Origin: Myxococcaceae bacterium
Lineage (GTDB): Bacteria > Myxococcota_A > Polyangia > Polyangiales > Ga0077539
DNA: 64,000 bases
NCBI GenBank assembly: GCA_004297725.1
Contig: SCUS01000042.1
Span: 1,048 to 65,047, forward strand
Direction of reading: 5' to 3'
The notes beneath the pieces are model-generated. The model worked only from the letters and a program-made list of their open reading frames with translations, did not search any database and was not told where the DNA came from. Shown here piece by piece: positions 5,376 through 36,414 of this stretch. Numbering within the stretch: position 1 is the first letter of the stretch; each line of letters starts with the position of its first letter. Position numbers and translations under genes: made by a program.

Positions 5376-6256
5376 CAGGACGCTTCTCCATCGCGTGCGC
5401 GCGCCACCGCGTCCCCGACGCGCACCGGCGTCGGATCGACACCCCGCGCGGCCTCCCAGCGACCATGCGCCGCCGGGCCGAGGAGCACCACCACAGTCGA
5501 ACCGAGCTGGAAGGCTCCCAGCTCGTCGCCCTTCTCCAGCGTCGGCCTCGCGTCGCCCTCGAAGGCGCGCACCGCCGAGCGACCCCCGAGCTCGGGCCGC
5601 GGCGGCGCCTCGATGGTCAGGGTGATCTTGCCGACCACGAAGGCGCCGACGAAGACCACCGCGGCGGGGCCGAGCTCGGTGTCGACGTGAACCACCACCC
5701 GCTCGTTGCGCGCGAAGAGCCCGGGCACCGTGCGCACGCCCATCTCGTTGACCGGGAAGAGGTCGCCGGGGATGTGCCGCACCTCGCGCACGCGCCCGGC
5801 CACGGGGCTGTGCACCCGGTGGTAGTCGCGAGGCGACAGATACACGATGAAGTAATGCCCGCCCTCGTAGGCGCGCGCGGCCGCGGGGTCATCGAGCAGC
5901 GTGGCGGCGTCGTAGGACTGACCCTTCACGGTGAAGCGGCGGTCGGCGGAGACGGGGCCGCTGTCGTCGAGGCGCCCGTCGGCGGGGGAGACCACCGTGG
6001 CGGGATCGGGGTCGACGGTGTGGATTCCCGGGCGAAGCTGACGGGTGAAGAACTCGTTGAAGCTGCGGAAGCCCCCTTCGGGGACCACCGCCTCGTCGAG
6101 CGCGACGTCGTAGGCGCGGGAGTAGAGGTCGAGCACCGGGCGCAGCACCGGCCGCGGGATACGCGCCTCGGTAAAGCGCCCGAGCGCGCGGGTGATGCGC
6201 CCTCGGGGGAGGAGGTGCAGGAGGGAGGCGGCGGCGCGCGAACGGAGGGGAACCAT
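5375..6256 (-). CDS. psd: Phosphatidylserine decarboxylase proenzyme
   Basis: Family hallmarks are FFTRQLRPG, VSPADGRL, YLSPRDYHRVHSP and the C-terminal autocleavage site FQLGSTVV (LGST). Confidence 0.9.
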   Translation of the reverse strand: MVPLRSRAAASLLHLLPRGRITRALGRFTEARIPRPVLRPVLDLYSRAYDVALDEAVVPEGGFRSFNEFFTRQLRPGIHTVDPDPATVVSPADGRLDDSGPVSADRRFTVKGQSYDAATLLDDPAAARAYEGGHYFIVYLSPRDYHRVHSPVAGRVREVRHIPGDLFPVNEMGVRTVPGLFARNERVVVHVDTELGPAAVVFVGAFVVGKITLTIEAPPRPELGGRSAVRAFEGDARPTLEKGDELGAFQLGSTVVVLLGPAAHGRWEAARGVDPTPVRVGDAVARARDGEAS

Positions 6257-19970: not shown

Positions 19971-19987
19971 TGGGGACTACCGGGGGC

Positions 19988-21469
19988 CTATTGCCGGGTG
20001 ACCCGGAGCGTCACGCGGTCGAGGTAGCCCTGTCGGTTGACGCCCGCGGCGATGACCGTGCGCGCCAGGTCGGCGAGCCCGAAGACCTTCTCCGGGCTGT
20101 CGTAGGAGGTCTCCGCGCTGCCGGTGGTGAACCACTCCGAGGCCATGGCGGCGGGGTTGACCGTCCATCGTCCGTAGAGCCCGAAGTTGTAGTCGCGGGT
20201 GCCGGGAGGGAGCTGCCGGCAGTCGATGCCGGTGCGCACCGTGAAGGGTCCGGGCAGGGTGCGCATGGCCTCTCGGGGCATGAGGAAGAAGCCGTCGAGG
20301 GGGGTGGGCGACTGCCAGGTGAGCGAGACCGTCGCGAGGGGCGGCGGGGGCATCGGGCCGAACTGGATCACGCCGTCGAGGCGGATGCGCGCCTGGCCGT
20401 GGACATCACAGCGGGCGGGGATGACCAGGGTCTCGCCCTGGCGCACCGGGCGGTCGACGAGGACGCTGTCCGCCGCGCCGCCGCTCTCGTTGCGCACGGC
20501 GTTGAGCACGCGCGCGGTGAGCCCCTCGAAGGGAGACCACTCGCTGAAGGCGATGTCGGCGGGCGACTGCCGCAGGGTGATGCGCTCGACGGAGAGGCGG
20601 CGCTGCATCTCGCCCACGAGCTGTCGCCCCCGGGGGATGTCCCGGGTGAGCACGAAGAGCAGCAGCGGGCGGGCGCCCTGCCAGCGGAAGGCGCCGGACT
20701 CGCCGTTCATGGCCGGAGAGCTGGCGGAGAAGCGCACGCCGTTCCACTCGGGGTCGGTGTTGAGGGCGGCGACGTGCTGGGTGATGCGCGACCACATGGG
20801 CGGGTCGAGCCTTCGCTCGGCGAAATAGCGGCCGTCGAAGGGCAGGATGAGGCGCCCCACCCAGAGGCCGTAGCCCTCCTCGACGCGCTGGCGGAGCAGG
20901 GCCGCGAGGCAGCTCGGGTCGGCGCCCGCGGTGCAGGCCACGTCGCCGCTCGCCCCCGGCTGGAAGGGCGTGCTGGTGCTCTGGAAGCCGTCGGTCACCA
21001 GCACGGTGACGTTGTAGGGGTCGAGGGGGTCGGGCTGCTGGAGGTCGGGCCTCGGGGCGCGCGGCGGCCGTCGGAGCGCGAGGTGCAGCGCCGAATACCC
21101 ACCACGGTATGTCGCAGGCAGCCGGGCCTGCTGGGCGGTGAGCTGCGGGGCCTCGCAGTGGACGGCGGTGTCGACGGCGCAGCGCTGGAAGGGGTTGTTG
21201 AGCTGGAGCGCCGAGAGGGAGGCCTCGATGACCTGGGCGTGGAGGGTCTGCAGGGCGGTGGAGCGGGTCGAGGTGAAGCCCCGGATGCTCTCGGAGACGT
21301 CGACGAAGACCTGGGCGCCCCGGCCGGGAGGCGCCGCGGGGGTTGCGGCGGGGGCGACAACGGAGGGCGCGGCGGGCGAGGGCGCGGGGGCCGGAGAGGG
21401 CGAGCGGGAGGGGTTGCACGCGGCCAGGGTGAGGAGCGCGGCGGCGGCGAGGGGGCGGGCGGCGAGCAC
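19988..21469 (-). CDS. Lipoprotein with a von Willebrand factor A (vWA)-like domain
   Basis: MIDAS-type DxSxS (VFVDVSESI) and VLVTDG lie about 100 aa apart. Lipobox LTLAAC. I preferred GTG 21469, which is 8 nt after the upstream stop and gives MLAARPLAAAALLTLAAC. The alternative start 21502 would overlap the upstream gene by 26 nt. Confidence 0.65.
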   Translation of the reverse strand: MLAARPLAAAALLTLAACNPSRSPSPAPAPSPAAPSVVAPAATPAAPPGRGAQVFVDVSESIRGFTSTRSTALQTLHAQVIEASLSALQLNNPFQRCAVDTAVHCEAPQLTAQQARLPATYRGGYSALHLALRRPPRAPRPDLQQPDPLDPYNVTVLVTDGFQSTSTPFQPGASGDVACTAGADPSCLAALLRQRVEEGYGLWVGRLILPFDGRYFAERRLDPPMWSRITQHVAALNTDPEWNGVRFSASSPAMNGESGAFRWQGARPLLLFVLTRDIPRGRQLVGEMQRRLSVERITLRQSPADIAFSEWSPFEGLTARVLNAVRNESGGAADSVLVDRPVRQGETLVIPARCDVHGQARIRLDGVIQFGPMPPPPLATVSLTWQSPTPLDGFFLMPREAMRTLPGPFTVRTGIDCRQLPPGTRDYNFGLYGRWTVNPAAMASEWFTTGSAETSYDSPEKVFGLADLARTVIAAGVNRQGYLDRVTLRVTRQ

Positions 21470-21476
21470 CCGGGCG

Positions 21477-21881
21477 TCAGTGGGAGGTGACGACGGCGGC
21501 ATCGACGTACTCGCGGTTTTCCACGGCGGCCTCGATGAGGGAGGCGGCTTCGATCTCCAGGCGCTGGTCGCGCGGGCCGCGGACGACGTAGACCGCGCGG
21601 CCGTTCTCGACGGTCTCGCGGACGGAGACCTCGTCCTGCAGCTCGACCGGGGCGAGCAGGGTGCCTTGCCGCACGACGGCCACGTAGGAGTAGTGGCCTC
21701 GGGCGCGGCCGCCGACGAGCACCGACCAGAGGATCTGCCCGTGCTGGATGCTCACCTGCCCGACGGGCTCGCGGTGCTGGTCGGCGTAGCAGAGGCAGTA
21801 GCGCACGCCCGGAGGGAGGGAGCAGAGGTCCTCGGGCTTGGCGTGGGGGCAGCGGACGGAGACGCGGAGTGGGCGTGCCAT
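21477..21881 (-). CDS. Hypothetical 134-aa protein (Cys cluster CPH-x6-C-x9-C-x-C at N-terminus)
   Basis: Very strong GC3 bias in this frame. Non-degenerate amino-acid composition. Operon position. No recognised family motif. Confidence 0.55.
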   Translation of the reverse strand: MARPLRVSVRCPHAKPEDLCSLPPGVRYCLCYADQHREPVGQVSIQHGQILWSVLVGGRARGHYSYVAVVRQGTLLAPVELQDEVSVRETVENGRAVYVVRGPRDQRLEIEAASLIEAAVENREYVDAAVVTSH

Positions 21882-21894
21882 GGCGGTATTGGGT

Positions 21895-22206
21895 CTACTC
21901 GATGGTCCAGAGGCGGCGGGCGAGCACGTGCTCCATGAAGAGCTCGAGGGGAGAGAAGCGAAGCCAGCGGGTGGTCCCGGGCGGAACGAGCGGCAACGGG
22001 GCGATGGCGTTCTTGGCGAGCTGGGCCTCGAGGGCCATCTTGGTGGCCTCGAGACCGGGGTCGATCTTCGAGGGCGACGGCAGCTCCGAAGGGAGCTTCG
22101 GGGTCTCCAGAATGCCCACCTGGACCTTCTGGGCGATGGGCTCCTCGCCGAAGCGGTAGTGCGCTCGCGTACCGATCACCGGCGGGGTCTTCGAGTCCTG
22201 GCTCAT
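21895..22206 (-). CDS. Hypothetical 103-aa protein
   Basis: Only the last 103 codons of the 1094-aa track ORF look coding (MSQDSKTPPVIGTRAHYRFGEEP...). The ATG overlaps the upstream stop (ATGA at 22203-22206). High GC3. Confidence 0.55.
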   Translation of the reverse strand: MSQDSKTPPVIGTRAHYRFGEEPIAQKVQVGILETPKLPSELPSPSKIDPGLEATKMALEAQLAKNAIAPLPLVPPGTTRWLRFSPLELFMEHVLARRLWTIE

Positions 22207-25200
22207 CGGGTTCCTCCGAAGGGTGGCATGCCGGGCATGGGGGGCATCCCGGGCATGGGGGGCATGCCGCCCGGGGTCGGGTCGGGCGGCGGGGTGAGCA
22301 TGGCGGTGAGCTGCTCCCATCGCTGCCCGGCGAGGAAGACCTCCGCGGTCTGTCCGCGCTGCGTCGCCTGCGACGACACGAAGGTCATCTGCTGGTTCTG
22401 CACCCAGGCGAGCTGCTCCGGGGTCATGCCCGGCATCACCATCGTCTGCATCAGCTTCTGCCACTGCTGCGCGGCCAGCATCCGCTCGGGAGACTGACCC
22501 GACTGGGCGGCCTGCGTGACCACCTGCTGCCAGAGCTGCCGCTGCGCGAACTCGACCGCCGTGACCCCCATCGTCGCGGCCTGCGCCGCGAGCATCGGCC
22601 ACTGCTGCACCAGCGCGAAGGCCACCATCTCCATCGGCATCGCGAAGCCCGGGAAGGCCCCCATGGGCGAGGGCATCGCCGCGGGCATCGCGGGCGTCGC
22701 GGGCATCGCAGGCATCGTGGGCATCGAGGGCATCGCGAGGGGGAGCATCGCGGGCACCGCCACCGGCGCGACGGGCGCTTCCGCGGGCGGAACGAAGACC
22801 TCGAACTGGCTCGGGTCGTCCTGCGCGGGCGGACCGAAGGGGCGGTACCAGGGCACGCGGCGGCTCTGGTCGTTGAGCCAGAGGTCGAAGCCCAGCACGC
22901 CGTGACGCTCGGGCGCGCGGTTCTTGAAGAAGCGGGCGGCGTCTTCGGTGCTGTGGTGGGCTCCGAGCAGCCCGAGGGCCACGGCGGCCTTGCGGTGCGA
23001 CCCCTCCGCGGGGAGCACGAAGGAGATGTCGAAGGTGAGCCTCGGGTCGAGCAGGCTGATGTCGCCGTCGCTGATCTCCCCGGCGATGTCGGTCTCGCGG
23101 AGCAGGTCGAGCAGCCGCTCGTAGACCCGGTGGGCCATCATCTGCTCGACGGTCTTCATGCCGTCGCGGACGATGTCTCCGAAGCCCCAGCCGTTGCCGA
23201 GCAGCACCAGGCAGAACTCCACCACGCGCTTCTGCTGGGGGCCCTTGTTGATCCCGAGGATCCACCGTCGCTGGGCGCCTGATCCGGAGAGCGAGAAGAG
23301 GCGGTTGTGCGAGAGGTCGAGCGCGCCCTGGGCGGTGCGCCCGTGCTCCAGGCAGACGCCCGCGAGGGTGCGCGCCACATACTCGACGATGTAACCGATG
23401 AAGACCCGGGCGCGGCGCTCGGCGGTGGCCTTGCGCGCCTCGGCGATGACGTGCGGCGACTCCAGCAGCGCCTTGGCCGACTGGCTCTGGCGCACCGCGC
23501 TCGCGAGCCGGGTGTACGAGCCGACGCCGGGCATCACGCAGGCGCCGCGGCGGTCGCCCTCGCCGGCGCCGACCAGCGAGCGGAGGTACACGCTGCCGCC
23601 GAAGAAGATCGAGGAGCTGAATACGTGGGGGTGTAAGCCGGAGTGGCCCTGGCTGTTGGTGCGGGCGAGGGTGTCGTCGACCAGCACCTCCAGCGATCCG
23701 CCGCCGAGGTCGAGGTAGACGCGGAACATCTTGTCGGACGAGGCGTGCCCCGCGGCGGCCTGGGCCTCGTCGATGAGGGGCGTCGCGGGGAAGACGAAGT
23801 CCGCGCCGGTGAGCTGCTTCAGGCGAGTCCCTGCCTCCTCGGCGGCGAGGCGCAGGGTCTCCAGGTCGCCCTCGTCGAAGGCCAGCGGGAAGCTGTAGTT
23901 GACGTTGACCGTGCGGGGCGCGGCCTCCTCCTCGGAGAGCAGCGACGCGGCGGTCATCAGCATCGCTCCCTCGAGGAAGCGCGACTGGAGCGCCTGCACG
24001 ATCTCCCGGCGGGCGAGGGCGCTCTTGTCCTTCTCCACGGCGCGCAGCCACTTGAACTCGCTCACCGTGTGCTCGGACGAGACCGCGCTGGAGGCGCCGC
24101 GCAGGGGCACGCCGAAGTCCTTGCCGAAGGAGAGGGCGTTGATGGCCGACTCGGAGGCCACGTCGGTCCACTTGCGGACGCAGCCGAGCTCGCTCGGGAG
24201 CAGGTCGTGCGAGGGGCCGGACCACTCGCCGCCGGGCCAGAGGTCGATGCCGCGGTGGATGGTGGGCGGGCCCCCGTCGAGGAGGTTGAGCGTGGTGGAG
24301 GTGCGGTCGCGGCTGCGCTCCGGGGCCACGCACTGCAGGCTCCCGTCGCGCCGCTTCACGGCGATGACCGTGTTGGAGGTTCCGAAGTCCACGCCGAAGG
24401 ACCAGGTGTCGCTCGGGAGCGCGTCGCCCGGAGGAGCGAGCGGGAAGAGCCCTCCGCCGACGGCCTCGGCGCCGCCTCCCTGCGTGGCCTGCATGAACTC
24501 CACGCTCACCCACGAGGGGCGTCCCTTTCGGGTGGCGCCGACGTAGCCCGTGGGTCCGCTCTCCCCCTCCCGGCCGACCTCCTGGTCGAGCGCGACCACG
24601 TCGAGGCGGGTCTCGCTGGTGGGCCGGCCGTCGACGTCGCTCGGGGGCACGAGCATCCGGGCGCGCAGCATCCTGCCCTGGGAGAAGAGCGCCATGCCCT
24701 CCTCGGTGGCCGCCTGGATGCCCACCACGTAGTAGCGCCACGCGTTGGTGGGGCGCTTGAGGTTGGGCCACACGCGCAGGGTGACGCCGCGGAAGGCCAC
24801 CGCGTCGACGTCGCCCGCGTTGGGAGAGAAGGGGTTGGCCGGGAGCAGGTCGCACTCGTAGGTGGGCCACTCGGTCTGCTTGAGCCCTCGCAGCGGGAGC
24901 ACGCACTGGTAGCGGGACTTGCCGCGCTCCTGGATGACCCGGCCGAAGAGGTGGGGCTTCTCCCGGGCGAGGCGCACCTGCGCCGGGTCGAGGCAGTCGA
25001 GGTACTCGGGCATCACCGGGAGCACCGGGATCTGCCGCTCGCCGCCGGACATGAACACCGGCACCGAGCGGAAGCAGATCTGCTCCTTGGAGAGCGACTC
25101 GATCTCGCTCTCGACGCGCAGCTTGAGGCGGCCGACGGTGATGACGTTGGCGGCTCCGGCGACGCCGCCCTCGCGCCACCGCACCCAGCGCCCGGAGTCG

Positions 25201-25364
25201 GCGCGAGGGAAGACCCGCTCCAGCGCGCGGATCTTCACCCGGTCGCTGCGGCAGATCGGGCAGTGCAGCTTGCGGGGCTCGGCGCCCTTGCGCGCGAAGA
25301 GCACCGTCATCTCCAGGCGGCTCAGGTCGAAGCCGCAGTGCTCGCAGTGATTTTCTTGCTCCAT
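22203..25364 (-). CDS. Large zinc-ribbon / ASKHA (Hsp70-actin-like) ATPase protein with a Met/Pro/Gln-rich C-terminal tail
   Basis: N-terminal CEHC-x26-CPIC zinc ribbon. ASKHA phosphate motifs WSFGVDFGTSNTVIAV and FRVYLDLGGGSLEVLV. C-terminal ~230 aa contain (MPx)n and GGMPPMPGMPPMPGMPPFGG repeats. Confidence 0.75.
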   Translation of the reverse strand: MEQENHCEHCGFDLSRLEMTVLFARKGAEPRKLHCPICRSDRVKIRALERVFPRADSGRWVRWREGGVAGAANVITVGRLKLRVESEIESLSKEQICFRSVPVFMSGGERQIPVLPVMPEYLDCLDPAQVRLAREKPHLFGRVIQERGKSRYQCVLPLRGLKQTEWPTYECDLLPANPFSPNAGDVDAVAFRGVTLRVWPNLKRPTNAWRYYVVGIQAATEEGMALFSQGRMLRARMLVPPSDVDGRPTSETRLDVVALDQEVGREGESGPTGYVGATRKGRPSWVSVEFMQATQGGGAEAVGGGLFPLAPPGDALPSDTWSFGVDFGTSNTVIAVKRRDGSLQCVAPERSRDRTSTTLNLLDGGPPTIHRGIDLWPGGEWSGPSHDLLPSELGCVRKWTDVASESAINALSFGKDFGVPLRGASSAVSSEHTVSEFKWLRAVEKDKSALARREIVQALQSRFLEGAMLMTAASLLSEEEAAPRTVNVNYSFPLAFDEGDLETLRLAAEEAGTRLKQLTGADFVFPATPLIDEAQAAAGHASSDKMFRVYLDLGGGSLEVLVDDTLARTNSQGHSGLHPHVFSSSIFFGGSVYLRSLVGAGEGDRRGACVMPGVGSYTRLASAVRQSQSAKALLESPHVIAEARKATAERRARVFIGYIVEYVARTLAGVCLEHGRTAQGALDLSHNRLFSLSGSGAQRRWILGINKGPQQKRVVEFCLVLLGNGWGFGDIVRDGMKTVEQMMAHRVYERLLDLLRETDIAGEISDGDISLLDPRLTFDISFVLPAEGSHRKAAVALGLLGAHHSTEDAARFFKNRAPERHGVLGFDLWLNDQSRRVPWYRPFGPPAQDDPSQFEVFVPPAEAPVAPVAVPAMLPLAMPSMPTMPAMPATPAMPAAMPSPMGAFPGFAMPMEMVAFALVQQWPMLAAQAATMGVTAVEFAQRQLWQQVVTQAAQSGQSPERMLAAQQWQKLMQTMVMPGMTPEQLAWVQNQQMTFVSSQATQRGQTAEVFLAGQRWEQLTAMLTPPPDPTPGGMPPMPGMPPMPGMPPFGGTR
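22225..22272. repeat. Coding tandem repeat, 18-bp unit x ~2.7 (GGCATGCCGGGCATGGGG)
   Basis: Direct reading. It encodes the PMPGMPPMPGMPP tail of the 1053-aa protein on the minus strand. Confidence 0.9.
22671..22757. repeat. Coding imperfect 9-bp tandem repeat (GGGCATCGC-like, ~9 copies)
   Basis: Direct reading. It encodes AMLPLAMPSMPTMPAMPATPAMPAAMP on the minus strand. Confidence 0.85.
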
Positions 25365-27586: not shown

Positions 27587-27672
27587 AGATCGTGTCCAGC
27601 GCGCGACGCGCCGTACCCGGCGCTTGATCATCGTCATTTTGGATGCGGGCGGCCGGAGCAGCATCCGGCGCG

Positions 27673-28725
27673 ATGAGCCCTACGCCCCGGATCTCGAAGC
27701 CGCGCGCGCTCCTTCTTGGCTCGAGCGGCTTCGTCGGGATCAACGTCGCAGACGCCCTTCGCGCGGAGGGGCACCACGTCGCCGGGGCCTACCGGGGACG
27801 CGCGCCGGCCTTCTTCGTCCGGGGGCGCCTCGACGAGACGGTCGCGGCGGACCTCGCCGACCCGGGCTCGCTGCGCGCGGCCATGAGCGGGCGCGACGTG
27901 GTGTTTCACGCGGCGGGGCACTACCCGCGCTACTCCCTCGACCGGGTCGGAGCGATCGCGACGGCGCTGCGGGAGACGCGCAACGTGCTCGACGCCGCGA
28001 AGTCCGCGGGGGTGCGGCGCGTCGTCTACACGTCCTCGATCGGCGTGCTCGAGCGAGGCAGCGGGGCCGCCGCCGCGGAGGACGACGTCTCCCCGGAGGC
28101 TCCGGCGAGCTCGGTCTACCGCGCGGTGAAGTGGCACATGGAGCGCGCGGTGAGCGACGCCCGGCGCGGTGGCCTCGACGTCGTCGTGCTGCGCCCGGGC
28201 GGGTGTCTCGGGCCCTGGGACATGCACGTCGGCACCGGCGGCGTGGTGGTGGCGGTGGTCCGCGGCGCGGTCTCCTGGTGGGTCGACGGGCTCGTGCACA
28301 TGGTCGACGTGAGGGATGTCGCGCGAGCCCACGTGGCCGCGCTTGTCGCGCCTGCGCAGCGTACCTACAACCTCGCCGGCCACGGAGTGCGGGTCTCCGC
28401 GCTCCTGCGCGGCATCGCGAAGCGCTACGGCGGCGCGGTGCCCGAGCGCTCTCTCGCTCCCGACGCGGCCCTCGCTCGCGCTGACGACGAGGAGCGCGCC
28501 GCGGCCCCGGTTCGAGGCCGCGTGGTGTTTCCGCGCGAGCTCGTCGACATCGCCCTCTCCGGGGCGCCGGTCTCCGACGACCTCGCCCGGCGCGAGCTCG
28601 GCTTCGACCCGCGCCCGCTCGACGAGGCGCTCGACGCGTCCGTCGCCTGGTTTCGACGCACCGGCCACCTGCCGTCCCCGGCGCCGCATCCGGCGGCGCT
28701 CGAACTCTCCCAACGACCCTCATGA
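27673..28725 (+). CDS. NAD(P)-dependent epimerase/dehydratase-family (extended SDR, DFR/HpnA-like) reductase
   Basis: Rossmann motif ALLLGSSGFVGINV about 12 aa from the chosen ATG. Catalytic YxxxK (SVYRAVKWHME). The alternative start ATG 27643 adds 10 aa. Confidence 0.8.
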   Translation: MSPTPRISKPRALLLGSSGFVGINVADALRAEGHHVAGAYRGRAPAFFVRGRLDETVAADLADPGSLRAAMSGRDVVFHAAGHYPRYSLDRVGAIATALRETRNVLDAAKSAGVRRVVYTSSIGVLERGSGAAAAEDDVSPEAPASSVYRAVKWHMERAVSDARRGGLDVVVLRPGGCLGPWDMHVGTGGVVVAVVRGAVSWWVDGLVHMVDVRDVARAHVAALVAPAQRTYNLAGHGVRVSALLRGIAKRYGGAVPERSLAPDAALARADDEERAAAPVRGRVVFPRELVDIALSGAPVSDDLARRELGFDPRPLDEALDASVAWFRRTGHLPSPAPHPAALELSQRPS

Positions 28726-28741
28726 AAGCGCGATCGCACCG

Positions 28742-29038
28742 ATGACCACCAACGCCCTGCTCGTCGACCCCGCAGCCCGTGCCGTCCTGTCCGATGACCA
28801 GATCCGCGCGCGCGCCGTCCATCTCCTGGCGACCATCCTCGAGCGCGACCCCGAGACGGTGCAGCAGGCGCACTCGCTCCGCGCCGACCTCGGCATGGAC
28901 TCGCTGAGCGCGCTGGAGTTTCTCTCGTCGCTGAGCCACGAGTTCGACATCGACCTGGAGGTCGAGGAGACCTACGGGCTCACCACCCTCAACGAGGTGG
29001 TGGCGCTCGTCACCCAGAGGGTGCGGGGGTCGCTGTGA
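28742..29038 (+). CDS. Acyl carrier protein (stand-alone)
   Basis: 98 aa with the phosphopantetheine attachment motif DLGMDSLSALEF. Only the 3' third of track ORF 28316-29038 is coding. Confidence 0.85.
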   Translation: MTTNALLVDPAARAVLSDDQIRARAVHLLATILERDPETVQQAHSLRADLGMDSLSALEFLSSLSHEFDIDLEVEETYGLTTLNEVVALVTQRVRGSL

Positions 29039-30540
29039 ACGTCGCGGCCGACGCCCCGACCGACGGCGAGGTCATGGGCCTGCTCATCGAGGAGACCCGT
29101 CGCTTCCTCGCGCGTGAGGTCGACCCCGCCGCGATCGAGGCGAGCGGCCGCATCCCTGATCGCGTCGTCGCCGCGGCGGCCTCCGCGGGCCTCTTCGCGC
29201 TCACCCTCCCCGAGTCGCACGGCGGCCTCGGGTTGCCGCTCCGCTCGGCCGGCACCATCGTCGCGGAGCTCGCGAGGGTCGACCGCTCGGTGGCCACCAT
29301 GGTGGGCCTGCACGCCGGGCTCGGCACGCGCTCGCTGGTCGTCCATGGCAGCGACGCCCGGCGCGCCCGCTGGCTGCCCGCGCTCGCCGAGGGGGAGCGC
29401 GTCGGCGCCTTCGGGGCCACCGAGGCGGGCGCTGGATCGGACCTCCAGGCGATTCGCACCGTCGCCCGCCCGGAGGGCTCCGGACTGCGCATCGACGGGG
29501 AGAAGTCGTACGTGACCAACGGCGGCTTCGCGGGCCTCTACACCCTGCTCGTGCGCACGCCGGGCCTCGGGGGCGAGCGATCGTTCTCGATGGTGTGCGT
29601 CCCTCGGGAGACCCCGGGGCTCTCCGTGGGCCCGGAGGAGGACAAGCTCGGGATACGGGCCTCGTCGACGGTGACCGTGCGGCTCGACGACGTCTACGTG
29701 CCCAGCGACCACCTCCTCGGCGCACCCGGCGCGGGCATGGACCTCGCGCACGAGGCCCTCGGCTGGGGCAGGGTGGTGATGGCCACGGGCTGCACCGGCA
29801 CCGCCCGGTACGCGCTCGACGCGACGCTGGCGCACGTGACCGCCAGGCGGCAGTTTCACCGGCCGATCGGGGACTTCGACGCCGTGCGTATGCAGGTGTC
29901 GACCATGGCCGCGACGCTCTTCGCGATGGAGTCGCTGGCCGACCGCGCCGCGTGCGCGGCGGAGGCCGGAGGCGACCTGACCGGACTCTCGGCGGCCGCG
30001 AAGGTCTTCTGCTCCGAAGGGGCCTTCGCGATCTGCGACGCGGCGCTGCAGCTCCACGGGGCCATGGGCTTCCTCGAGCAGACGGGCGTCGCCCGGGCGC
30101 TGCGCGACTGCCGCATCACCCGGATCTTCGAGGGCGCCAACGACGTCCTGCTGGTGCACCTGGGCGCCGGGCTTCTGGTCGCCAGGGCCCGCCCGGAGGC
30201 GCCGTCGAGCGGTCACCCGGCCTTCGACGAGTTCGAGCGGCGCCTCTCCCGGCTGGTGGCGGAGAACCGCGCCGAGTTCGGGATTCGCGGCACCCAGCGG
30301 CAGCTTCTCACCTCGCGCCTGGCGCGGGCGGAGGTGTGCGCCCTGGCCGCGCGCGCCTCGCTCGACCGGGCGGCGACCGATCCGGAGAGCGCCGAGCTCG
30401 CTGCCTTCGCCGTCGAGCAGCTCACCCGCGAGGGCCATCGGCAGCTCGACGCGCTGCGTTTCATCCAAGAGGACGAGCGGGCCGCTGCCTCGCTCTCCAA
30501 GCGTTCTTACTCGCCCTGGGCGAGCGGGAGGTCTGCGTGA
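29035..30540 (+). CDS. Acyl-CoA/acyl-ACP dehydrogenase (long form with C-terminal extension)
   Basis: ACAD motifs GAFGATEAGAGSDL, YVTNGG and catalytic-base context RITRIFEGANDVL. The GTG start overlaps the ACP stop (GTGA at 29035-29038). Confidence 0.9.
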   Translation: MNVAADAPTDGEVMGLLIEETRRFLAREVDPAAIEASGRIPDRVVAAAASAGLFALTLPESHGGLGLPLRSAGTIVAELARVDRSVATMVGLHAGLGTRSLVVHGSDARRARWLPALAEGERVGAFGATEAGAGSDLQAIRTVARPEGSGLRIDGEKSYVTNGGFAGLYTLLVRTPGLGGERSFSMVCVPRETPGLSVGPEEDKLGIRASSTVTVRLDDVYVPSDHLLGAPGAGMDLAHEALGWGRVVMATGCTGTARYALDATLAHVTARRQFHRPIGDFDAVRMQVSTMAATLFAMESLADRAACAAEAGGDLTGLSAAAKVFCSEGAFAICDAALQLHGAMGFLEQTGVARALRDCRITRIFEGANDVLLVHLGAGLLVARARPEAPSSGHPAFDEFERRLSRLVAENRAEFGIRGTQRQLLTSRLARAEVCALAARASLDRAATDPESAELAAFAVEQLTREGHRQLDALRFIQEDERAAASLSKRSYSPWASGRSA

Positions 30541-31829
30541 AGATTCGTTTCGTCTATGCCCGCTTCGAGCGCCACGCCGACGCGCATCCGGAGCTTCGTA
30601 CCTTCGTCTCCGCCAACGAGTACTTCGGCCCGCCGTCGCTCGGCATCGCGAGCCTCGCGGCGGTCACTCCGCCGGACTGGGAGTTCGACTTCCGCGACGA
30701 CCGCGTCGACGACGTGGGCTTCGACGACGACGTCGACCTCGTGGCCATCTCCTGCTTCACCCCTTCGGCGAAGCGGGCGATGGAGATCGCCGACGGCTTC
30801 CGCGCCCGCGGCCGCACCGTGGTGATGGGGGGAATCTTCCCGACGATGCGCCCCGCGGAGGCGGGCGAGCACGCCGACGCCGTGGTCACCGGCGAGGGCG
30901 AGGTCGCGTGGCTGGAGCTGCTCTCGGACTTCCGCCGCAAGGCGCTCAAGCCGCGATACAACGGCGAGACCCCGGCGGATCTCTCGAAGCTGCCGGTGCC
31001 GCGCCTCGACCTCTACTGGGGGCGCGAGACCGAGAGCTACCACCCCGACGACTTCCCGGTGCAGCTCACCCGAGGCTGCCCGCTGCGGTGCGACGCCTGC
31101 GTGCTGCCCACGAGCATGGGCCGGCCGATGCGCCACCTGCCCATCGAGCACGTGCTCGGTCAGCTCCGGCAGATCGCGGAGCGAGGGCGCCTCGGGTCGC
31201 TCACCGAGGACACGAGCTTCCTCCCGGTCGCGGGCGCGCAGAAGCACCTGGGCGAGGTGCTCGACGCCATCGCCTCGGAGGACCTGCGCTGCGTGAGCTA
31301 CGTGGGCACCAGCATGCCCATGCTCCTCGCGACGCCGTCGTGGCTCTGGGACAAGCTCAGCAACGCGGGCGTACGGATGTTCTACCTGGTGGGCGGCTTC
31401 GACCCCATCACCCGCCGCGCCTTCAGCGGCGAAGACCCGGTGGCCTACCGCAAGGCCGTCGACGCCATCCGGCGAGCGCGCGACCACGGGATCGATCCGT
31501 ACACGTCGTTCATGGTCGGCAACGAGGGCGACGACGACGGGGTCTTCGACCGCATGCTGGAGTTCTCCGAAGCGGCGAACGTGCGCAAGGCGGAGTTCGC
31601 GATCTTCACCCCGTACCCCGGCACCCCCTCGTGGGATCGCCTGCGCGCCGAGGGGCGGATCCTCCACTGCGACTGGTCGAAGTACAACGACGCCAACGTG
31701 GTGTTCCGCCCGGCGAAGATGAGCCCCGAGCGGCTGCTGGAGGGCTACCTCCACCTCTGGCGCGAGTTCTACCGGGCTCGCCCTTCGATCCAGAACTCCG
31801 ACTACGCCGCGCGGACGGTGCAGTTCTAG
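30537..31829 (+). CDS. B12-binding-domain radical SAM protein (class B rSAM)
   Basis: N-terminal Rossmann-like B12-binding-type domain (DLVAISCFTPSAKRAMEIADGFRARGRTVVMGGIFPT). CxxxCxxC cluster TRGCPLRCDACVLP. The GTG start overlaps the ACAD stop (GTGA at 30537-30540). Confidence 0.85.
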   Translation: MKIRFVYARFERHADAHPELRTFVSANEYFGPPSLGIASLAAVTPPDWEFDFRDDRVDDVGFDDDVDLVAISCFTPSAKRAMEIADGFRARGRTVVMGGIFPTMRPAEAGEHADAVVTGEGEVAWLELLSDFRRKALKPRYNGETPADLSKLPVPRLDLYWGRETESYHPDDFPVQLTRGCPLRCDACVLPTSMGRPMRHLPIEHVLGQLRQIAERGRLGSLTEDTSFLPVAGAQKHLGEVLDAIASEDLRCVSYVGTSMPMLLATPSWLWDKLSNAGVRMFYLVGGFDPITRRAFSGEDPVAYRKAVDAIRRARDHGIDPYTSFMVGNEGDDDGVFDRMLEFSEAANVRKAEFAIFTPYPGTPSWDRLRAEGRILHCDWSKYNDANVVFRPAKMSPERLLEGYLHLWREFYRARPSIQNSDYAARTVQF

Positions 31830-31841
31830 CGAGGCGACGCG

Positions 31842-32729
31842 ATGAGCCATCCTGCCCACGCCGACGAGCTGCTCGACCTGGCGACGTGCCCGGCCGATCG
31901 GCTCTGGCGCTACCCGATCAGCCGCCTGCTCGTGGGGCCCCTCATGGGCACCCCCGTCACCCCGAAGCACGTGACGGTGTTCCACACGATCATGGCCGTG
32001 CTCGCGGGCGGCATCATCACGCTCGGGACCCCGCGGGCCCTCTTCGTCGCGGGGCTGCTCTTCGAGGGCAGGGCGATCCTCGACTGCCTCGACGGCGAGC
32101 TCGCCCGCGCGAAGAAGCTCTGCTCCCCCGCCGGCCGGGCGCTCGATCAGCTCGGTGACACCATCGGCTTCGCGTCGCTCATGATCGGCGGCTTCGTGTG
32201 CCTGTCTCGGGCCCACGGCCCCGCCGCGGCGGCGGTGCTGGTGCTGGCCACCGCGCTCATCGCCGCGAGCGGCTCGGCCGCCTGGGACTACTTCCGTCGC
32301 TCGCTCTCCTCGCTCCTCACCTGCGGCTACGACACCACCGCGGAGGAGCACCAGGCGCTGCGGCGCTCCTCCGACGCGCGCTCTCCCGCCGTGCTCCAGA
32401 TGAGCCGCATCGTCGACGGCTTCCAGTGGTGCGTGCTCGGCCCGCCGACGGCTCCGTGGCAGCGGGCGAGCGCCGGGCACTCGATGACCCCGCTGGGCCG
32501 CGCGGTGCAGGACGCCGCGGAGCGCGACGACCCCGCGCTGCGCTCGCTGCTCTGGAAGGTGGGCTTCGTCGGCGGCGACAACATCCTCATGCTGCTCACC
32601 GCGTCGCTGCTGCTCGGGCGCTTCGTCGAGGCCTTTCCGCTGGTGATCGTCTGGGGCATCGCCATCTGGGCGTATACGGTGTCGACGGTGAACCGCTACC
32701 TGCAACAAGGCTCTCGCCCGCGCGCATGA
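31842..32729 (+). CDS. CDP-alcohol phosphatidyltransferase family protein
   Basis: Exact family signature D-x2-DG-x2-AR-x8-G-x3-D-x3-D (DCLDGELARAKKLCSPAGRALDQLGD). Multi-TM protein. Confidence 0.85.
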   Translation: MSHPAHADELLDLATCPADRLWRYPISRLLVGPLMGTPVTPKHVTVFHTIMAVLAGGIITLGTPRALFVAGLLFEGRAILDCLDGELARAKKLCSPAGRALDQLGDTIGFASLMIGGFVCLSRAHGPAAAAVLVLATALIAASGSAAWDYFRRSLSSLLTCGYDTTAEEHQALRRSSDARSPAVLQMSRIVDGFQWCVLGPPTAPWQRASAGHSMTPLGRAVQDAAERDDPALRSLLWKVGFVGGDNILMLLTASLLLGRFVEAFPLVIVWGIAIWAYTVSTVNRYLQQGSRPRA

Positions 32730-33868
32730 ACCCCCCTCCGATGCACCTCACCGCCCACGACCGCCTGCGGTCGCAGGGCGTCGCGATCGCCCGCTGGCTC
32801 CTGGCGTGCGCCCTCCTGTGCTTCCTCATGCTGGTGATCGGCGGGCTCACCCGGCTCACCGGCTCCGGGCTCTCGATCGTCGAGTGGCGCCCGGTCACCG
32901 GGGCCGTGCCGCCGCTCGATCTGCGCGACTGGGCCGTGCTCTTCGAGCAGTACCGGCAGTCGCCGCAGTTTCGTATCGAGAACGCCCACATGACCCTGGA
33001 GGGCTTCCGGCGCATCTTCTGGTGGGAGTACATCCACCGCCTGATGGGGCGGGTCACGGGCCTTGTGTTCGCGCTCCCGCTGCTCTGGTTCTGGCGCAAG
33101 GGTCAGCTCCCGGCGGCGCTTCGGGTGCGGCTCCCGGCGATCTTCGCCCTCGGCGCGGCGCAGGGCGTGATGGGCTGGCTGATGGTCAAGAGCGGGCTGG
33201 TCGACGACCCCAGGGTGAGCCCGGTGCGCCTGGCGCTGCACCTCGGCCTGGCCTTCGTGCTGGTGGGGCTCCTGGTGCGCACGGCGCTCACGGTGCGTGA
33301 GGGAGCGGCCCATGCGCCGAAGCCTCCGTCGGCGCTGTCGCGCTCGGCGGATGTCCTCGCGGCGACGGTCTTCGTGATGGCGCTCTCCGGCGCGCTGGTG
33401 GCGGGCAACCACGCGGGGCTCGCGTTCAACACCTGGCCCCTGATGGCGGGGAGCCTGGTGCCGGCGGGGCTCTTCCCGATCCAGCCCTGGTACCTCGGGG
33501 CGCTGCTCGACGTGACCACGGTGCAGTTCGACCACCGGGCGCTCGCCCTGGTGCTCGCGCTCGCGGTGCCGGGCTTCTGGATCGCCTCGCTCCGCGCGCC
33601 CATCGACCGGCGCTCCCGGCGGTGGTGCCACCTGGTGATGGCGACCTTCGTCGCCCAGTTCTCGCTCGGCGTCGCGACGCTGCTCCTCGCGGTGCCGATC
33701 GCTCTCGCGTCGCTGCATCAGGCCAACTCGATGCTGTTCTTCGTCGCGACGCTGGGCGCCGGGCACGCGCTGCGTCGCTCGCCGACGGTCGAGCTGCAAG
33801 ACCTGGCGCCACCGGACGCAATCGCCCATCACGGCGAGCCCGATGGCGGTGATAGCGTCGAGGCATGA
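32726..33868 (+). CDS. ctaA: Heme A synthase (COX15/CtaA)
   Basis: Motifs LMLVIGGLTRLTGSGLSIVEWRPVTG, WEYIHRLMGR and QFDHR. Eight TM-like segments. The ATG overlaps the upstream stop (ATGA at 32726-32729). Only the 3' two thirds of track ORF 32198-33868 is coding. Confidence 0.9.
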   Translation: MNPPPMHLTAHDRLRSQGVAIARWLLACALLCFLMLVIGGLTRLTGSGLSIVEWRPVTGAVPPLDLRDWAVLFEQYRQSPQFRIENAHMTLEGFRRIFWWEYIHRLMGRVTGLVFALPLLWFWRKGQLPAALRVRLPAIFALGAAQGVMGWLMVKSGLVDDPRVSPVRLALHLGLAFVLVGLLVRTALTVREGAAHAPKPPSALSRSADVLAATVFVMALSGALVAGNHAGLAFNTWPLMAGSLVPAGLFPIQPWYLGALLDVTTVQFDHRALALVLALAVPGFWIASLRAPIDRRSRRWCHLVMATFVAQFSLGVATLLLAVPIALASLHQANSMLFFVATLGAGHALRRSPTVELQDLAPPDAIAHHGEPDGGDSVEA

Positions 33869-36414
33869 GTGAGCGTGGTGCCCGTGCGCGGGCGTTGAAG
33901 GTCCTCTTCGCAGGTGTCCTCTCGTCGTGTGCGCCGACGGTGATCAGCGGCCCTCCCACCCCGGATGGATCGGTCGCCGATACCCCCGGGGTCCTCGACG
34001 CGCCGGGGGTCGACGCGGGCTCGATCGACGCGGCGCGCCTCGATCGCCCCGTCGTCGATGCGACGGAGATCGACGCCGGCAAGGTGCTCCCCGACGCCAG
34101 CGACGAGGACGGGGGCGGCGCTCCCGACGCGACGATCGACGACGTCGTGACGCCGACGGACAAGCCCGTCACCCCCGAAGACGTCGTGGCTCCGACCGAC
34201 GCGCCCATCCCGCCTGACGACGTCCCGGTCGTGCCGGTCGATGCGCCCGTGTCGAGCTGCGGCGTCCCCCTCCAGCGCGCCCTCTCGCTCCCCGCCGACC
34301 GCGCGATGGGCACCACCTCGGGCGCCGGTCGGCTCACCGCGATGTGCGCCCAGTCCGGTGGCCCCGAGCACGTCTATCCGCTCCGCGTCGCCGCCCGCAC
34401 CGGCGTGCAGCTCGCGGTCAACGCTCCCTTCGACTCGGTGCTCTCGATCCGCCGCGTGTGCGCCGATCCGACGAGCGAGGTCGCCTGCAACGACGACGTC
34501 CCCGGAGGCAACAACGCCTTCCTCCGTCGGGTGCTCGAGCCCGGCGACTACTCGGTGCTGGTCGATCAGTTCGGCCCCACCACGGGGACGGGCGGCGCGT
34601 ACTCCCTCGACCTCCGCTCGTATACGCCCGCGGACAACGCGGAGTGCGCGGCGGGCGTCGCGCTCTCGGCCGGCGCCCCCGTGATGGGCGACTCCACCTC
34701 CGGCGGCGCCTCGGGCACGGCGTGTCTCGGCGGCTCGTGGGGGCCGCAGCTCTTCTACACGGTGCGGGTCCCCGCCGGGCAGCGCGCGGTGGTGACCGCG
34801 ACCCCGGCTGGAGCTCCTGCCTGGTCGGCCGTGGTGCGCGCCCGCGCCGGATGCGCGGCGAACGCCTGCCTCGCCGCGGCGACCTCGCCCACGGCGGGTG
34901 CCCCTGCGGTGGCCCGATACGACAACCGCACCGCCGCCCCGGTCGACCTCTCGCTCTCGGTCGCGAGCACCAGCGGAACCTCCGGCGGCGCCTTCTCCCT
35001 CGGCCTCGCCTTCGAGCCGGCTCCGGCGGCCCCTGCCAACGCCGCGTGCGCGTCGGCGAGGGTGCTGACGGCCGGGGCGACGCTCACCGGCGAGGACGCC
35101 TCGCTGGCCTCCGCGCGGCTCGGCGGCGTGTGCGTCGCGGAGGCCCAGGGGGCCTCTCTCTTCTATCGCTTGAGCGTGCCTTCGAGGGCGACCGCGCTGG
35201 TCACCGCCACGCCGCGCGGGGGCTGGAACCCCGTGGTCCGCGCGCTCGACGCGTGCGACTCCCGGTCGTGCGCGGCGTCGTCCAGCACCGCGGGCGCCGA
35301 CCAGCCCGAGACGCTCACCTGGGTGAACCCCGACGCCACCGCGCGCGACATCGTGCTGGCCGTCGGCTCGCTGGAGCCCTCCAACGGCGGCCGCTTCGAC
35401 CTGAGCGCGACGATCGTTCCGGCCCCGTCCAACGTGAGCTGCGCCACGGCCGCCGTGGTGGCCAACGGGGCGCGGCTGACCTATCAGAACGCCGCCGTCG
35501 CGAGCGACAACGCCACCGGGGCCTGCCTCCCGGCCGCGACGGGGACGGCGCTCTGGTACCGCGCGGTGGTCCCCGCAGGGCAGACCCTGACCGCCCGCGC
35601 GACGCCGCTCGGGGCGATGGACGCGGTGGTGCGCGTGCTGTCCGCGTGCGGCGCCACGACCTGCCTCGCGAGCGCCAACACCGGCGCGGCGCGCGCGGCC
35701 GAGCGGGGGGAGTACACCAACACCACCGCGGGCGATCAGACGGTGCTGCTGGCCGTGGGCGGCGCGACCAACGCGACCAACGGGCTCTTCGACCTGGAGG
35801 TGTCCATCGCGCGGCAGTACCAGGAGTCCGTGGTGGTCACGGCCTGCGACGACATGGCCGCCGGGGTCCCCGTCATGGGCATCGCCGGCGACGACACGGT
35901 CTCCCCCGCGGTCGACCTGCCCTTCCCGGTGACCTTCTTCGGCCAGCGGATGCTCGAGTACAGCGTCTCGTCCAACGGGCTGCTGCAGCTCTTCCCCGCC
36001 ATCACCGGGGCGATGCCCAGCAACTCCTACGGCAACACGGCGATCCCCGATCGCGGCGTGCCCAACGGGTTCATCGCGGCGTTCTGGGATGACCTGCTCC
36101 CGGTGATGGGGTCGCGCGTGCTGACCCGCACCCTGGGCGTCGCGCCCGACCGCCGCTTCGTGGTGCAGTGGACGCAGTACGCGATCTACGGCGACGAGCG
36201 GGCGCGGCTGACCTTCCAGGCGAAGCTCTTCGAGGGCGCCGGAGCCATCGAGCTCCACTACTGCTCCATCACGCCGGGGGCGGACGCTCCGCGCGCCACG
36301 GGGTCTTCGGCCACCGTGGGCATCGAGTCGCCGGACGGATCGGCGGGACGGCAGCACTCCTTCAACGACCCGACGGGGATCAGCACCGCTCGCGCGATGC
36401 GCTTCGTCCCGTGA
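33865..36414 (+). CDS. Secreted lipoprotein with an Asp/Pro-rich linker, about five PPC-like modules and a C-terminal NIDO-like domain
   Basis: Lipobox VLSSC. The ATG overlaps the ctaA stop (ATGA at 33865-33868). The repeated ~125-aa modules are paralogous to 8260-10449. C-terminal segment FPVTFFGQRMLEYSVSSNGLLQLF...FIAAFWDDL. Confidence 0.75.
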   Translation: MSERGARARALKVLFAGVLSSCAPTVISGPPTPDGSVADTPGVLDAPGVDAGSIDAARLDRPVVDATEIDAGKVLPDASDEDGGGAPDATIDDVVTPTDKPVTPEDVVAPTDAPIPPDDVPVVPVDAPVSSCGVPLQRALSLPADRAMGTTSGAGRLTAMCAQSGGPEHVYPLRVAARTGVQLAVNAPFDSVLSIRRVCADPTSEVACNDDVPGGNNAFLRRVLEPGDYSVLVDQFGPTTGTGGAYSLDLRSYTPADNAECAAGVALSAGAPVMGDSTSGGASGTACLGGSWGPQLFYTVRVPAGQRAVVTATPAGAPAWSAVVRARAGCAANACLAAATSPTAGAPAVARYDNRTAAPVDLSLSVASTSGTSGGAFSLGLAFEPAPAAPANAACASARVLTAGATLTGEDASLASARLGGVCVAEAQGASLFYRLSVPSRATALVTATPRGGWNPVVRALDACDSRSCAASSSTAGADQPETLTWVNPDATARDIVLAVGSLEPSNGGRFDLSATIVPAPSNVSCATAAVVANGARLTYQNAAVASDNATGACLPAATGTALWYRAVVPAGQTLTARATPLGAMDAVVRVLSACGATTCLASANTGAARAAERGEYTNTTAGDQTVLLAVGGATNATNGLFDLEVSIARQYQESVVVTACDDMAAGVPVMGIAGDDTVSPAVDLPFPVTFFGQRMLEYSVSSNGLLQLFPAITGAMPSNSYGNTAIPDRGVPNGFIAAFWDDLLPVMGSRVLTRTLGVAPDRRFVVQWTQYAIYGDERARLTFQAKLFEGAGAIELHYCSITPGADAPRATGSSATVGIESPDGSAGRQHSFNDPTGISTARAMRFVP

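Follow-up and report, generated by a model that had tools for sequence, protein, structure and literature searches.

Five closely spaced genes at positions 27673 to 32729 of a 64,000-nucleotide stretch of Myxococcaceae bacterium DNA (contig SCUS01000042.1; this whole stretch is called the window here) raise the question of whether they act together and, if so, on what substrate. An earlier note had read them as a novel lipid-biosynthesis cluster in which a short-chain dehydrogenase/reductase (SDR), a private acyl carrier protein (ACP), an acyl-coenzyme A (CoA) dehydrogenase (ACAD) and a B12-type radical S-adenosylmethionine (SAM) enzyme tailor an acyl chain that a cytidine diphosphate (CDP)-alcohol phosphotransferase joins to a head group. 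Our comparative analysis leads to a related reading that we consider probable on balance, in which positions 27673 to 31829 would hold four of the five genes of a Myxococcota (ligase)-SDR-ACP-ACAD-radical SAM cassette that tailors a long-chain fatty acyl group on its own ACP, the ligase being a fatty acyl-AMP ligase (FAAL). The earlier model is thereby corrected in three respects: the transferase is taken out of the core, a FAAL is added and the operon is extended to ctaA. Both the continuation of the operon into ctaA and an 849-aa open reading frame (ORF) and the absence here of the usual FAAL member had been overlooked.

Conservation and layout of the gene cassette

The window proteins were mapped onto 6 loci fetched via exact-protein look-ups and 75 loci from metagenomes; of 75 non-redundant orthologous loci, each synteny count below takes as its denominator those whose flanking DNA was sufficient. 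More than 1000 homologues of the radical SAM protein were found at E<=1e-10. The best 120 of them share at least 58% identity with it and are either unnamed or bear generic names; where an organism is named, it is without exception a Polyangiales, Sandaracinaceae, Myxococcales, Myxococcota or "Deltaproteobacteria" metagenome-assembled genome (MAG), a taxonomy that rests on the names attached to the protein matches. A scan of genome contigs with a single protein returned one true orthologue, from the same species at 98% identity, and the locus 98% identical to the window belongs to an Aalborg West activated-sludge MAG.

Across these loci, the ACAD gene adjoins the radical SAM gene in 41/44 cases, the SDR gene is syntenic in 33/36, the ACP gene was seen at every locus where it is detectable, and a gene for an AMP-binding ligase (FAAL) is present in 19/22. 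The cassette genes lie on the same strand, usually in the order ligase-SDR-ACP-ACAD-radical SAM; the arrangement differs only in a second clade, which has the order methyltransferase-ketosynthase (KS)-ligase-SDR-ACP-radical SAM-ACAD. Judged by this synteny, the SDR, ACP, ACAD and radical SAM genes are a real, widely syntenic functional unit, and the cassette is conserved in uncultured Myxococcota.

Genes were called by third-position GC (GC3) frame analysis together with translation, in a window of ~73% G+C. The called frames of all five flagged genes have a GC3 of 0.90-0.95 and lie on one strand, in agreement with the positions that the earlier note had assigned to them, and the spacings it had given from the SDR gene to the CDP-alcohol transferase gene (16 nt, a GTGA overlap, a second GTGA overlap and 12 nt) proved exact. 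Its motifs for all five proteins were likewise found, and all Pfam matches of these proteins exceed gathering thresholds. The ATG at 27673 is the SDR start and is kept in alignment with relatives. Because ctaA and the 849-aa ORF are each joined to the preceding gene by ATGA, the operon probably runs past 32729 through both of them, ~3.7 kb beyond the five flagged genes. The ctaA start overlaps the stop codon of the transferase gene in this way, and its product matches Pfam COX15-CtaA at 328 bits. The 849-aa ORF, for which GC3 offers an alternative start at 33895, is probably the tail of the operon, without evidence of a functional link. An Rfam scan found neither a cobalamin nor a SAM riboswitch in the window, and a scan for sigma-70 promoters and terminators gave nothing exceeding chance. 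Between 32000 and 34000, over the polytopic membrane-protein genes for the CDP-alcohol transferase and CtaA, the AT skew is strongly negative (-0.27), which is probably a codon-composition effect.

In contrast to the four genes upstream of it, the CDP-alcohol transferase gene adjoins the radical SAM gene only in loci of the same species and in locus L089 (85% identity between its radical SAM protein and that of the window); this adjacency occurs in 0/44 other loci. In L011 and L017 (79%), ctaA follows directly after the radical SAM gene with no transferase gene between them, and L015 (80%) lacks both genes. The transferase family is small (38 clusters), and homologues at 75%, 67% and 52% identity sit in unrelated contexts; apart from one case in a phosphonate cluster, described below, the homologues stand alone. 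Since the gene is a neighbour of the cassette in the window species and L089 alone and its homologues elsewhere are unlinked, it looks like a recent, non-core insertion between the radical SAM gene and ctaA. The earlier note had staked its five-gene lipid cluster on synteny in other genomes. The SDR, ACP, ACAD and radical SAM genes bear this out and the transferase gene does not, and by that yardstick the head-group part of the model, with the transferase as the last pathway step, is not supported.

The transferase itself carries the motif D81-x2-DG-x2-AR-x8-G-x3-D-x3-D106 exactly and matches CDP-OH_P_transf (PF01066) at 46.8 bits. Its best PDB match is AF2299/DIPPS, and it falls near inositol-phosphate synthases, far under the cutoffs. 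PgsA, PssA, PIP synthase and archaetidylinositol-P synthase were rejected as assignments (19/109, 21/107, 31/170 and 37/180 bits/cutoff, respectively). One 52%-identical homologue lies inside a putative aminoethylphosphonate (AEP) cluster (L091, 6014-11751) together with genes for a phosphoenolpyruvate (PEP)-mutase/nucleotidyltransferase fusion, a phosphonopyruvate-decarboxylase-like thiamine pyrophosphate (TPP) enzyme, an aminotransferase and a second nucleotidyltransferase. Because of this one homologue, the family may move CMP-activated head groups onto lipid acceptors, and it may point to phosphonolipid head-group transfer in bacteria.

These features bear on the possibility that all five genes form one pathway, in which the phosphotransferase would add a head group to a tailored lipid alcohol or glyceride and yield a new phospholipid class. 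A gap of only 12 nt from the radical SAM gene and an overlap with ctaA imply that the transferase gene is co-transcribed, and L089 keeps this arrangement at 85% identity. The enzyme resembles AF2299/DIPPS-type enzymes, which use a CDP-activated head group, the homologue in the AEP-phosphonate cluster makes lipid acceptors plausible for the family, and a fatty alcohol would be a ready acceptor if the SDR releases one. A core step would be expected to travel with the cassette, however, and this one is missing even from L011, L015 and L017, at 79-80% identity, with its own homologues dispersed among unrelated genes. We therefore regard a five-gene pathway as quite unlikely. The transferase might use the cassette product in the window lineage, and the comparative evidence argues against a general role.

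Features of the cassette locus in the window
Feature	Positions	Strand	Sequence	Remark
Candidate CRP/FNR-family operator	27624..27637		TTGATCATCGTCAT	One mismatch to TTGA-N6-TCAA; 36 nt before the SDR start codon
Extended SDR, HpnA / 3-beta-hydroxysteroid dehydrogenase (3-beta-HSD) / cinnamoyl-CoA-reductase type, 350 aa	27673..28725	+		Core member
Dedicated acyl carrier protein, 98 aa	28742..29038	+		Core member
Acyl-CoA-dehydrogenase-family flavoprotein, 501 aa, with C-terminal extension like that of very-long-chain acyl-CoA dehydrogenase (VLCAD)/ACAD9	29035..30540	+		Core member
Radical SAM enzyme, 430 aa, N-terminal B12-binding-type Rossmann domain, DUF4070 tail	30537..31829	+		Signature gene
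CDP-alcohol phosphotransferase, 295 aa	31842..32729	+		Lineage-specific insertion between radical SAM gene and ctaA
COX15/CtaA heme A synthase homologue, 380 aa	32726..33868	+		ATGA-coupled; recurrent cassette neighbour
Probable secreted protein, 849 aa, no Pfam match	33865..36414	+		Start overlaps ctaA stop (ATGA)

Cassette enzymes and a proposed pathway

The earlier note had placed an acyl chain on a private ACP, and the comparison of loci argues for a fatty chain there because orthologous cassettes start with a FAAL-type ligase. The cassette ligases at other loci score 394-453 bits against the PRK09192 FAAL model and 270-320 bits against the MbtM model, and match the PDB FAAL 3pbk at E=3e-83; on these matches, the cassette ligase is a fatty acyl-AMP ligase. 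An aminomalonyl-ACP type of logic (ZmaG-J) was dropped because the ligases are clearly of the FAAL type and not amino-acid adenylation domains. No FAAL homologue was found anywhere in the 64-kb window at E<1e-8, and a local FAAL is absent both at the window locus and in its two nearest clades (L011 and L015).

None of the five window proteins reaches a curated equivalog cutoff in NCBIfam, which agrees with the novelty that the earlier note had claimed. The ACP carries DLGMDSL at residue 49 and matches PP-binding (PF00550) at 49.5 bits, and 23/23 orthologues keep the serine of its DSL. It scores under cutoff with every ACP equivalog model, including the housekeeping AcpP model TIGR00517 (36 bits versus 70), and by sequence the window ACP is distinct from housekeeping AcpP. 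The ACAD has all three Acyl-CoA_dh domains in Pfam (N, M and C at 84, 75 and 119 bits), and its best PDB matches include VLCAD and ACAD9. It scores 67 bits against the MbtN equivalog NF037942, the cutoff being 700. Its RIFEGAN motif lies at residue 363, and the glutamate of RIFEG, which we take to be the catalytic base, is invariant in 42/42 orthologues. We infer an ACP-bound substrate for this enzyme from synteny only.

The SDR shows GSSGFVG at residue 16 and Y149-x3-K153, with the Y-x3-K invariant in 29/29 orthologues, and matches Pfam Epimerase (101 bits) and 3Beta_HSD (57 bits). Its nearest family is HpnA (TIGR03466, 192 bits against a cutoff of 368), and its PDB matches are 3wj7 and 2x4g, two uncharacterised proteins, followed by cinnamoyl-CoA reductases. 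The thioester-reductase model and NAD_binding_4 score 54 and 26.7 bits, respectively. A hopanoid (hpn) assignment was rejected because TIGR03466 stays under cutoff and neither the window nor the fetched loci contain shc/hpn genes, and a sphingolipid (Spt) cluster was rejected because no aminotransferase class I/II gene occurs in the window or among conserved neighbours, in line with the earlier note, which had set this locus apart from both gene sets. The sole pyridoxal phosphate (PLP) enzyme seen near cassettes is a tryptophanase-like lyase, at 5 loci.

The signature protein of the cassette is a radical SAM superfamily member. Its cluster motif is C181-x3-C185-x2-C188, the CxxxCxxC is invariant in 30 homologues, and Pfam matches Radical_SAM (PF04055) at 42.5 bits and DUF4070 at 25.5 bits. 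The best named NCBIfam match is TIGR04013, at 66 bits versus a cutoff of 251. Other models gave, in bits/cutoff, HpnR 40/650, HpnJ 29/578, BchE 40/481, QCMT 39/360 and AprD4 (NF033070) 25/500, and the TIGR04072 'ladderane' family was rejected at 33/360. By these scores, the enzyme belongs to no named family tested. An AlphaFold2 model built from 30 homologues (pLDDT 92) was compared with the PDB by Foldseek, and AprD4 came first (TM 0.76, E=4e-19, 21% identity), followed by MgmA/QCMT, TsrM, CysS and TokK, all of which are radical SAM enzymes. The closest solved sequence is 9ccb, which is QCMT/MgmA (E=1.5e-10). QCMT methylates a carbon alpha to a carbonyl. CysS and TokK structures among these fold matches were solved with pantetheinylated ligands and therefore offer a precedent for carrier-tethered substrates.

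The B12-type label that the earlier note had attached to this enzyme is not secure. Its N-terminal domain is of B12-binding type (PF02310, 39.7 bits with a gathering score of 32.1), but AprD4, the structure that it matches best, has a related domain and binds no cobalamin (PMC12931638), which leaves cobalamin dependence uncertain.

A HMMER search for relatives of the radical SAM enzyme gave 809 representatives at E<=1e-30. Among relatives at 36-41% identity are proteins fused to a FabF-type KS (P0166 and P0168), a CrtI-family desaturase (P0178) or an MMPL/HpnN-like transporter (P0304), none of which reaches TIGR04072, and one cassette clade (L096) has a stand-alone KS upstream. Because of these FabF, CrtI and MMPL fusions and the KS neighbour in L096, the radical SAM clade is, on sequence grounds, tied to the building and export of fatty-acid-type lipids. 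A tblastn search against plasmids returned relatives at 25-32% identity only, too distant for transfer of function. One of these loci, on the Citrobacter portucalensis plasmid NZ_CP134684 (L097, 51.4-63.5 kb), contains five paralogues of a radical SAM gene, with ~30% identity to the window enzyme, among genes for GH3-family, N-acetyltransferase, PAP2 phosphatase and fatty acid desaturase proteins; this is apparently another lipid-related cluster.

In the pathway that we propose, a FAAL is likely to load a free long-chain fatty acid onto the private ACP, as its family and synteny indicate. The ligase gene lies in the cassette in most lineages; in this genome, it would be located elsewhere or replaced. 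It is fairly probable that the VLCAD-like ACAD then forms a 2,3-enoyl-ACP in the manner of MbtN, as its conserved catalytic Glu suggests. The radical SAM enzyme would abstract a hydrogen atom and modify the acyl chain. Two outcomes are conceivable for this step, each falling somewhat short of an even chance: C-methylation near the thioester if cobalamin is bound, or an AprD4-like, cobalamin-independent dehydration, cyclisation or desaturation. Lastly, there is an even chance that the NAD(P)H-dependent extended SDR reduces a carbonyl, which may be that of the thioester or of a keto group. Reduction of the thioester would release the product as an aldehyde or alcohol, as in cinnamoyl-CoA reductases, and reduction of a keto group would act on a carbonyl left by the radical step, as AprD3 acts after AprD4. 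The CDP-alcohol phosphotransferase and CtaA would be co-transcribed here and stand outside the core.

The same enzymes could instead be read as catabolic, serving to degrade an unusual fatty acid, or another lipid, without oxygen. The combination of acyl-activating enzyme, ACAD and dehydrogenase resembles beta-oxidation, and radical SAM chemistry under CRP/FNR-type control (described below) would fit the anaerobic activation of inert carbon. Against this, a dedicated ACP and a FAAL, which loads ACP and not CoA, are typical of biosynthesis, the cassette has no conserved hydratase or thiolase, and the KS fusions and KS neighbour point to chain building. We consider degradation a very improbable role.

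Probable CRP/FNR-type control and neighbouring genes

In L008, L009 and L068, a perfect TTGAT-N4-ATCAA palindrome precedes the ligase start by ~50-105 nt, and over all loci six such perfect boxes were found versus 0.2 expected. With a relaxed consensus (TTGA-N6-TCAA, at most 1 mismatch, from -300 to +60 of the cassette start), a box is present at the cassette start in 14/25 non-redundant loci with a definable start, the window included, and is perfect at seven loci versus ~0.33 expected. The TGA-N6-TCA core is invariant across the aligned upstream regions of the window, L001, L011 and L015. Because the box is conserved at cassette starts, a CRP/FNR-family regulator probably governs cassette expression as a conserved feature. 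Crp/FNR-type regulators with N-terminal Cys motifs adjoin the cassette in ~12 loci. Their Cys motifs, the neighbour genes and the oxygen sensitivity of radical SAM enzymes suggest low oxygen, nitric oxide (NO) or redox state as the signal.

The neighbours come from a clustering of all locus ORFs and from subsequent scans with Pfam and NCBIfam. CtaA lies near the radical SAM gene in at least nine lineages (the window, L089, L011, L017, L027, L033/L077, L040, L041 and L061), a second small radical SAM protein is encoded near the cassette in 9 loci, and RIC/hemerythrin genes lie near it in L012, L013 and L089. In L008 (11304-21296), the cassette stands beside genes for a tryptophanase-like lyase, an AhbD-like radical SAM/SPASM-protoporphyrinogen oxidase (HemY) fusion and a Crp-type regulator, and this locus also holds a norCBQD-like set (cytochrome c, COX1-family, CbbQ/NorQ-like and a large downstream protein). 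A search of the window found no Crp/FNR regulator, second radical SAM, FAAL or tryptophanase-like gene. Upstream of the cassette in L011, the 79%-identical relative, a 1046-aa BcrAD_BadFG + DUF2229 protein is encoded on the minus strand (1-2748, ~4.5 kb away); this domain combination is the signature of the Ger/PlsA ether-lipid reductase (PMC13159169).

These neighbours raise the possibility that the ACP-bound acid gives a non-membrane product, such as a diffusible signal, the lipid tail of another metabolite, or a molecule (cofactor or heme-related) that serves low-oxygen respiration. The recurrence of CtaA across lineages, the AhbD-like-protoporphyrinogen oxidase fusion and nor-like genes of L008 and the five loci with adjacent tryptophanase-like genes would all fit such a product, and the mycobactin tail is likewise built by FAAL-ACP-ACAD logic. 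Yet each heme gene occurs in a minority of loci and may merely share a regulon with the cassette, no nonribosomal peptide synthetase (NRPS), polyketide synthase (PKS), acyltransferase or exporter is consistently linked among conserved neighbours, and the VLCAD-like ACAD and the FAAL point to long chains typical of membrane lipids. A product of this kind therefore seems improbable to us.

For the tailoring of a long-chain fatty acyl group on the cassette ACP, which we favour, several points count on the other side. ACP loading has no explanation at the window, L011 and L015, where a FAAL is lacking. HpnA, the nearest family of the SDR, has no known reaction. The best fold match of the radical SAM enzyme, AprD4, works without cobalamin, though it has a related N-terminal domain. 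This tailoring also leaves unexplained a heme or respiratory link, which is hinted at by the recurrence of CtaA, tryptophanase-like and AhbD-HemY genes beside the cassette. Finally, the window box, TTGATCATCGTCAT, carries one mismatch, and no regulator gene lies within the window.

A more specific form of acyl-ACP tailoring would be a CRP/FNR-controlled, oxygen-independent route in uncultured Myxococcota, with the radical SAM enzyme introducing methyl branches (or else rings or unsaturation) into a fatty acyl-ACP. We hold this to be unlikely as it stands. We know of no radical SAM enzyme that acts on a fatty acyl-ACP; if the proposal is true, this enzyme would be the first one shown to do so, and the extra methylations in branched or 'overly branched' bacterial lipids of anoxic settings, for which no enzymes are known, might have their origin in this route. 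The route could also account for methylated bacterial lipids employed in palaeoclimate proxies. Should the CRP/FNR control prove real, it would reveal lipid remodelling under oxygen shortage in largely aerobic-looking Myxococcota.

Two other regions of the window were noted. At 3633-6256 on the minus strand, at a distance of 22 kb from the cassette, lie ordinary phospholipid genes: a phosphatidylserine decarboxylase gene and, abutting it, the gene for a 580-aa protein whose C-terminal SAM methyltransferase domain bears a weak resemblance to CMAS. At 18312-25364, also on the minus strand, a gene run encodes an Hsp70-like protein, three ORFs without a Pfam match and a 1053-aa protein, which has N-terminal CxxC...CxxC motifs, a Pro/Met-rich repetitive C-terminus (PMPGMPP repeats) and no Pfam match.

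Comparison with known systems

Lipid-modifying radical SAM enzymes are few and act mostly on archaeal ethers or hopanoids; a 2026 review of them covers Tes, Mss, Gms, GrsA/B, Gmm, Cds, HpnH/J/P/R, Jaw5 and hypothetical ladderane enzymes, with no mention of Myxococcota or acyl-CoA dehydrogenases (PMC13459092). In the literature that we searched, no description of this combination of genes was found. By sequence comparison, the cassette is real and conserved and probably serves ACP-tethered fatty-acid tailoring, and we found no published description of it. It is widespread in Myxococcota of sludge, sediment and soil and defines a large uncharacterised family with clear partner enzymes, so the cassette can be reconstituted directly.

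Several characterised or proposed systems resemble parts of it. In the anammox ladderane cluster, a dedicated ACP (amxACP), FabZ, FabF, a phytoene-desaturase-like enzyme (PDH) and a B12 radical SAM enzyme have been proposed to act on an ACP-bound chain (PMC13459092). Like it, the cassette combines a flavin desaturase and a dedicated ACP with a radical SAM enzyme that has a B12-binding-type domain, and relatives of the window enzyme are fused to FabF- or CrtI-type proteins. Unlike the ladderane cluster, the cassette lacks FabZ, FabF and PDH, its desaturase is an ACAD, it has entry through a FAAL and an SDR, and its hosts are Myxococcota. CysS and TokK, cobalamin-dependent radical SAM C-methyltransferases that act on pantetheine-tethered substrates, and QCMT/MgmA share a fold class with the window enzyme at 14-18% identity; their substrates are unrelated, and cobalamin binding by the window enzyme is putative. 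AprD4 and AprD3 are a radical SAM 1,2-diol dehydratase and its NADPH reductase, and the cassette likewise always pairs a radical SAM gene with an SDR-type reductase gene. AprD4 differs in acting on an aminoglycoside (PMC12931638), and no diol substrate is evident for the cassette.

The logic of ElbD and carboxylic acid reductases (adenylation, carrier, thioester reductase), which leads to fatty alcohols and ether lipids, offers another likeness, as a separate ligase, ACP and NAD(P)H reductase could yield an aldehyde or alcohol. Compared with ElbD, the SDR falls outside the NAD_binding_4 terminal-reductase type, an acyltransferase domain is lacking, and the ACAD and radical SAM steps are extra. 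For the non-core transferase, AF2299/DIPP-synthase-type enzymes share the family motif, with equivalog scores of the window protein far under cutoff. The mycobactin module MbtM/MbtL/MbtN follows the same logic as the cassette, in that a FAAL loads a dedicated ACP and an ACAD-family enzyme desaturates C2-C3. The cassette proteins stay below the cutoffs of that module (MbtM 270-320 versus 621 bits; MbtN 67 versus 700). What sets the cassette apart from mycobactin tail formation is its radical SAM enzyme and extended SDR, its ACAD with a VLCAD-type extension and the absence of a siderophore NRPS context.

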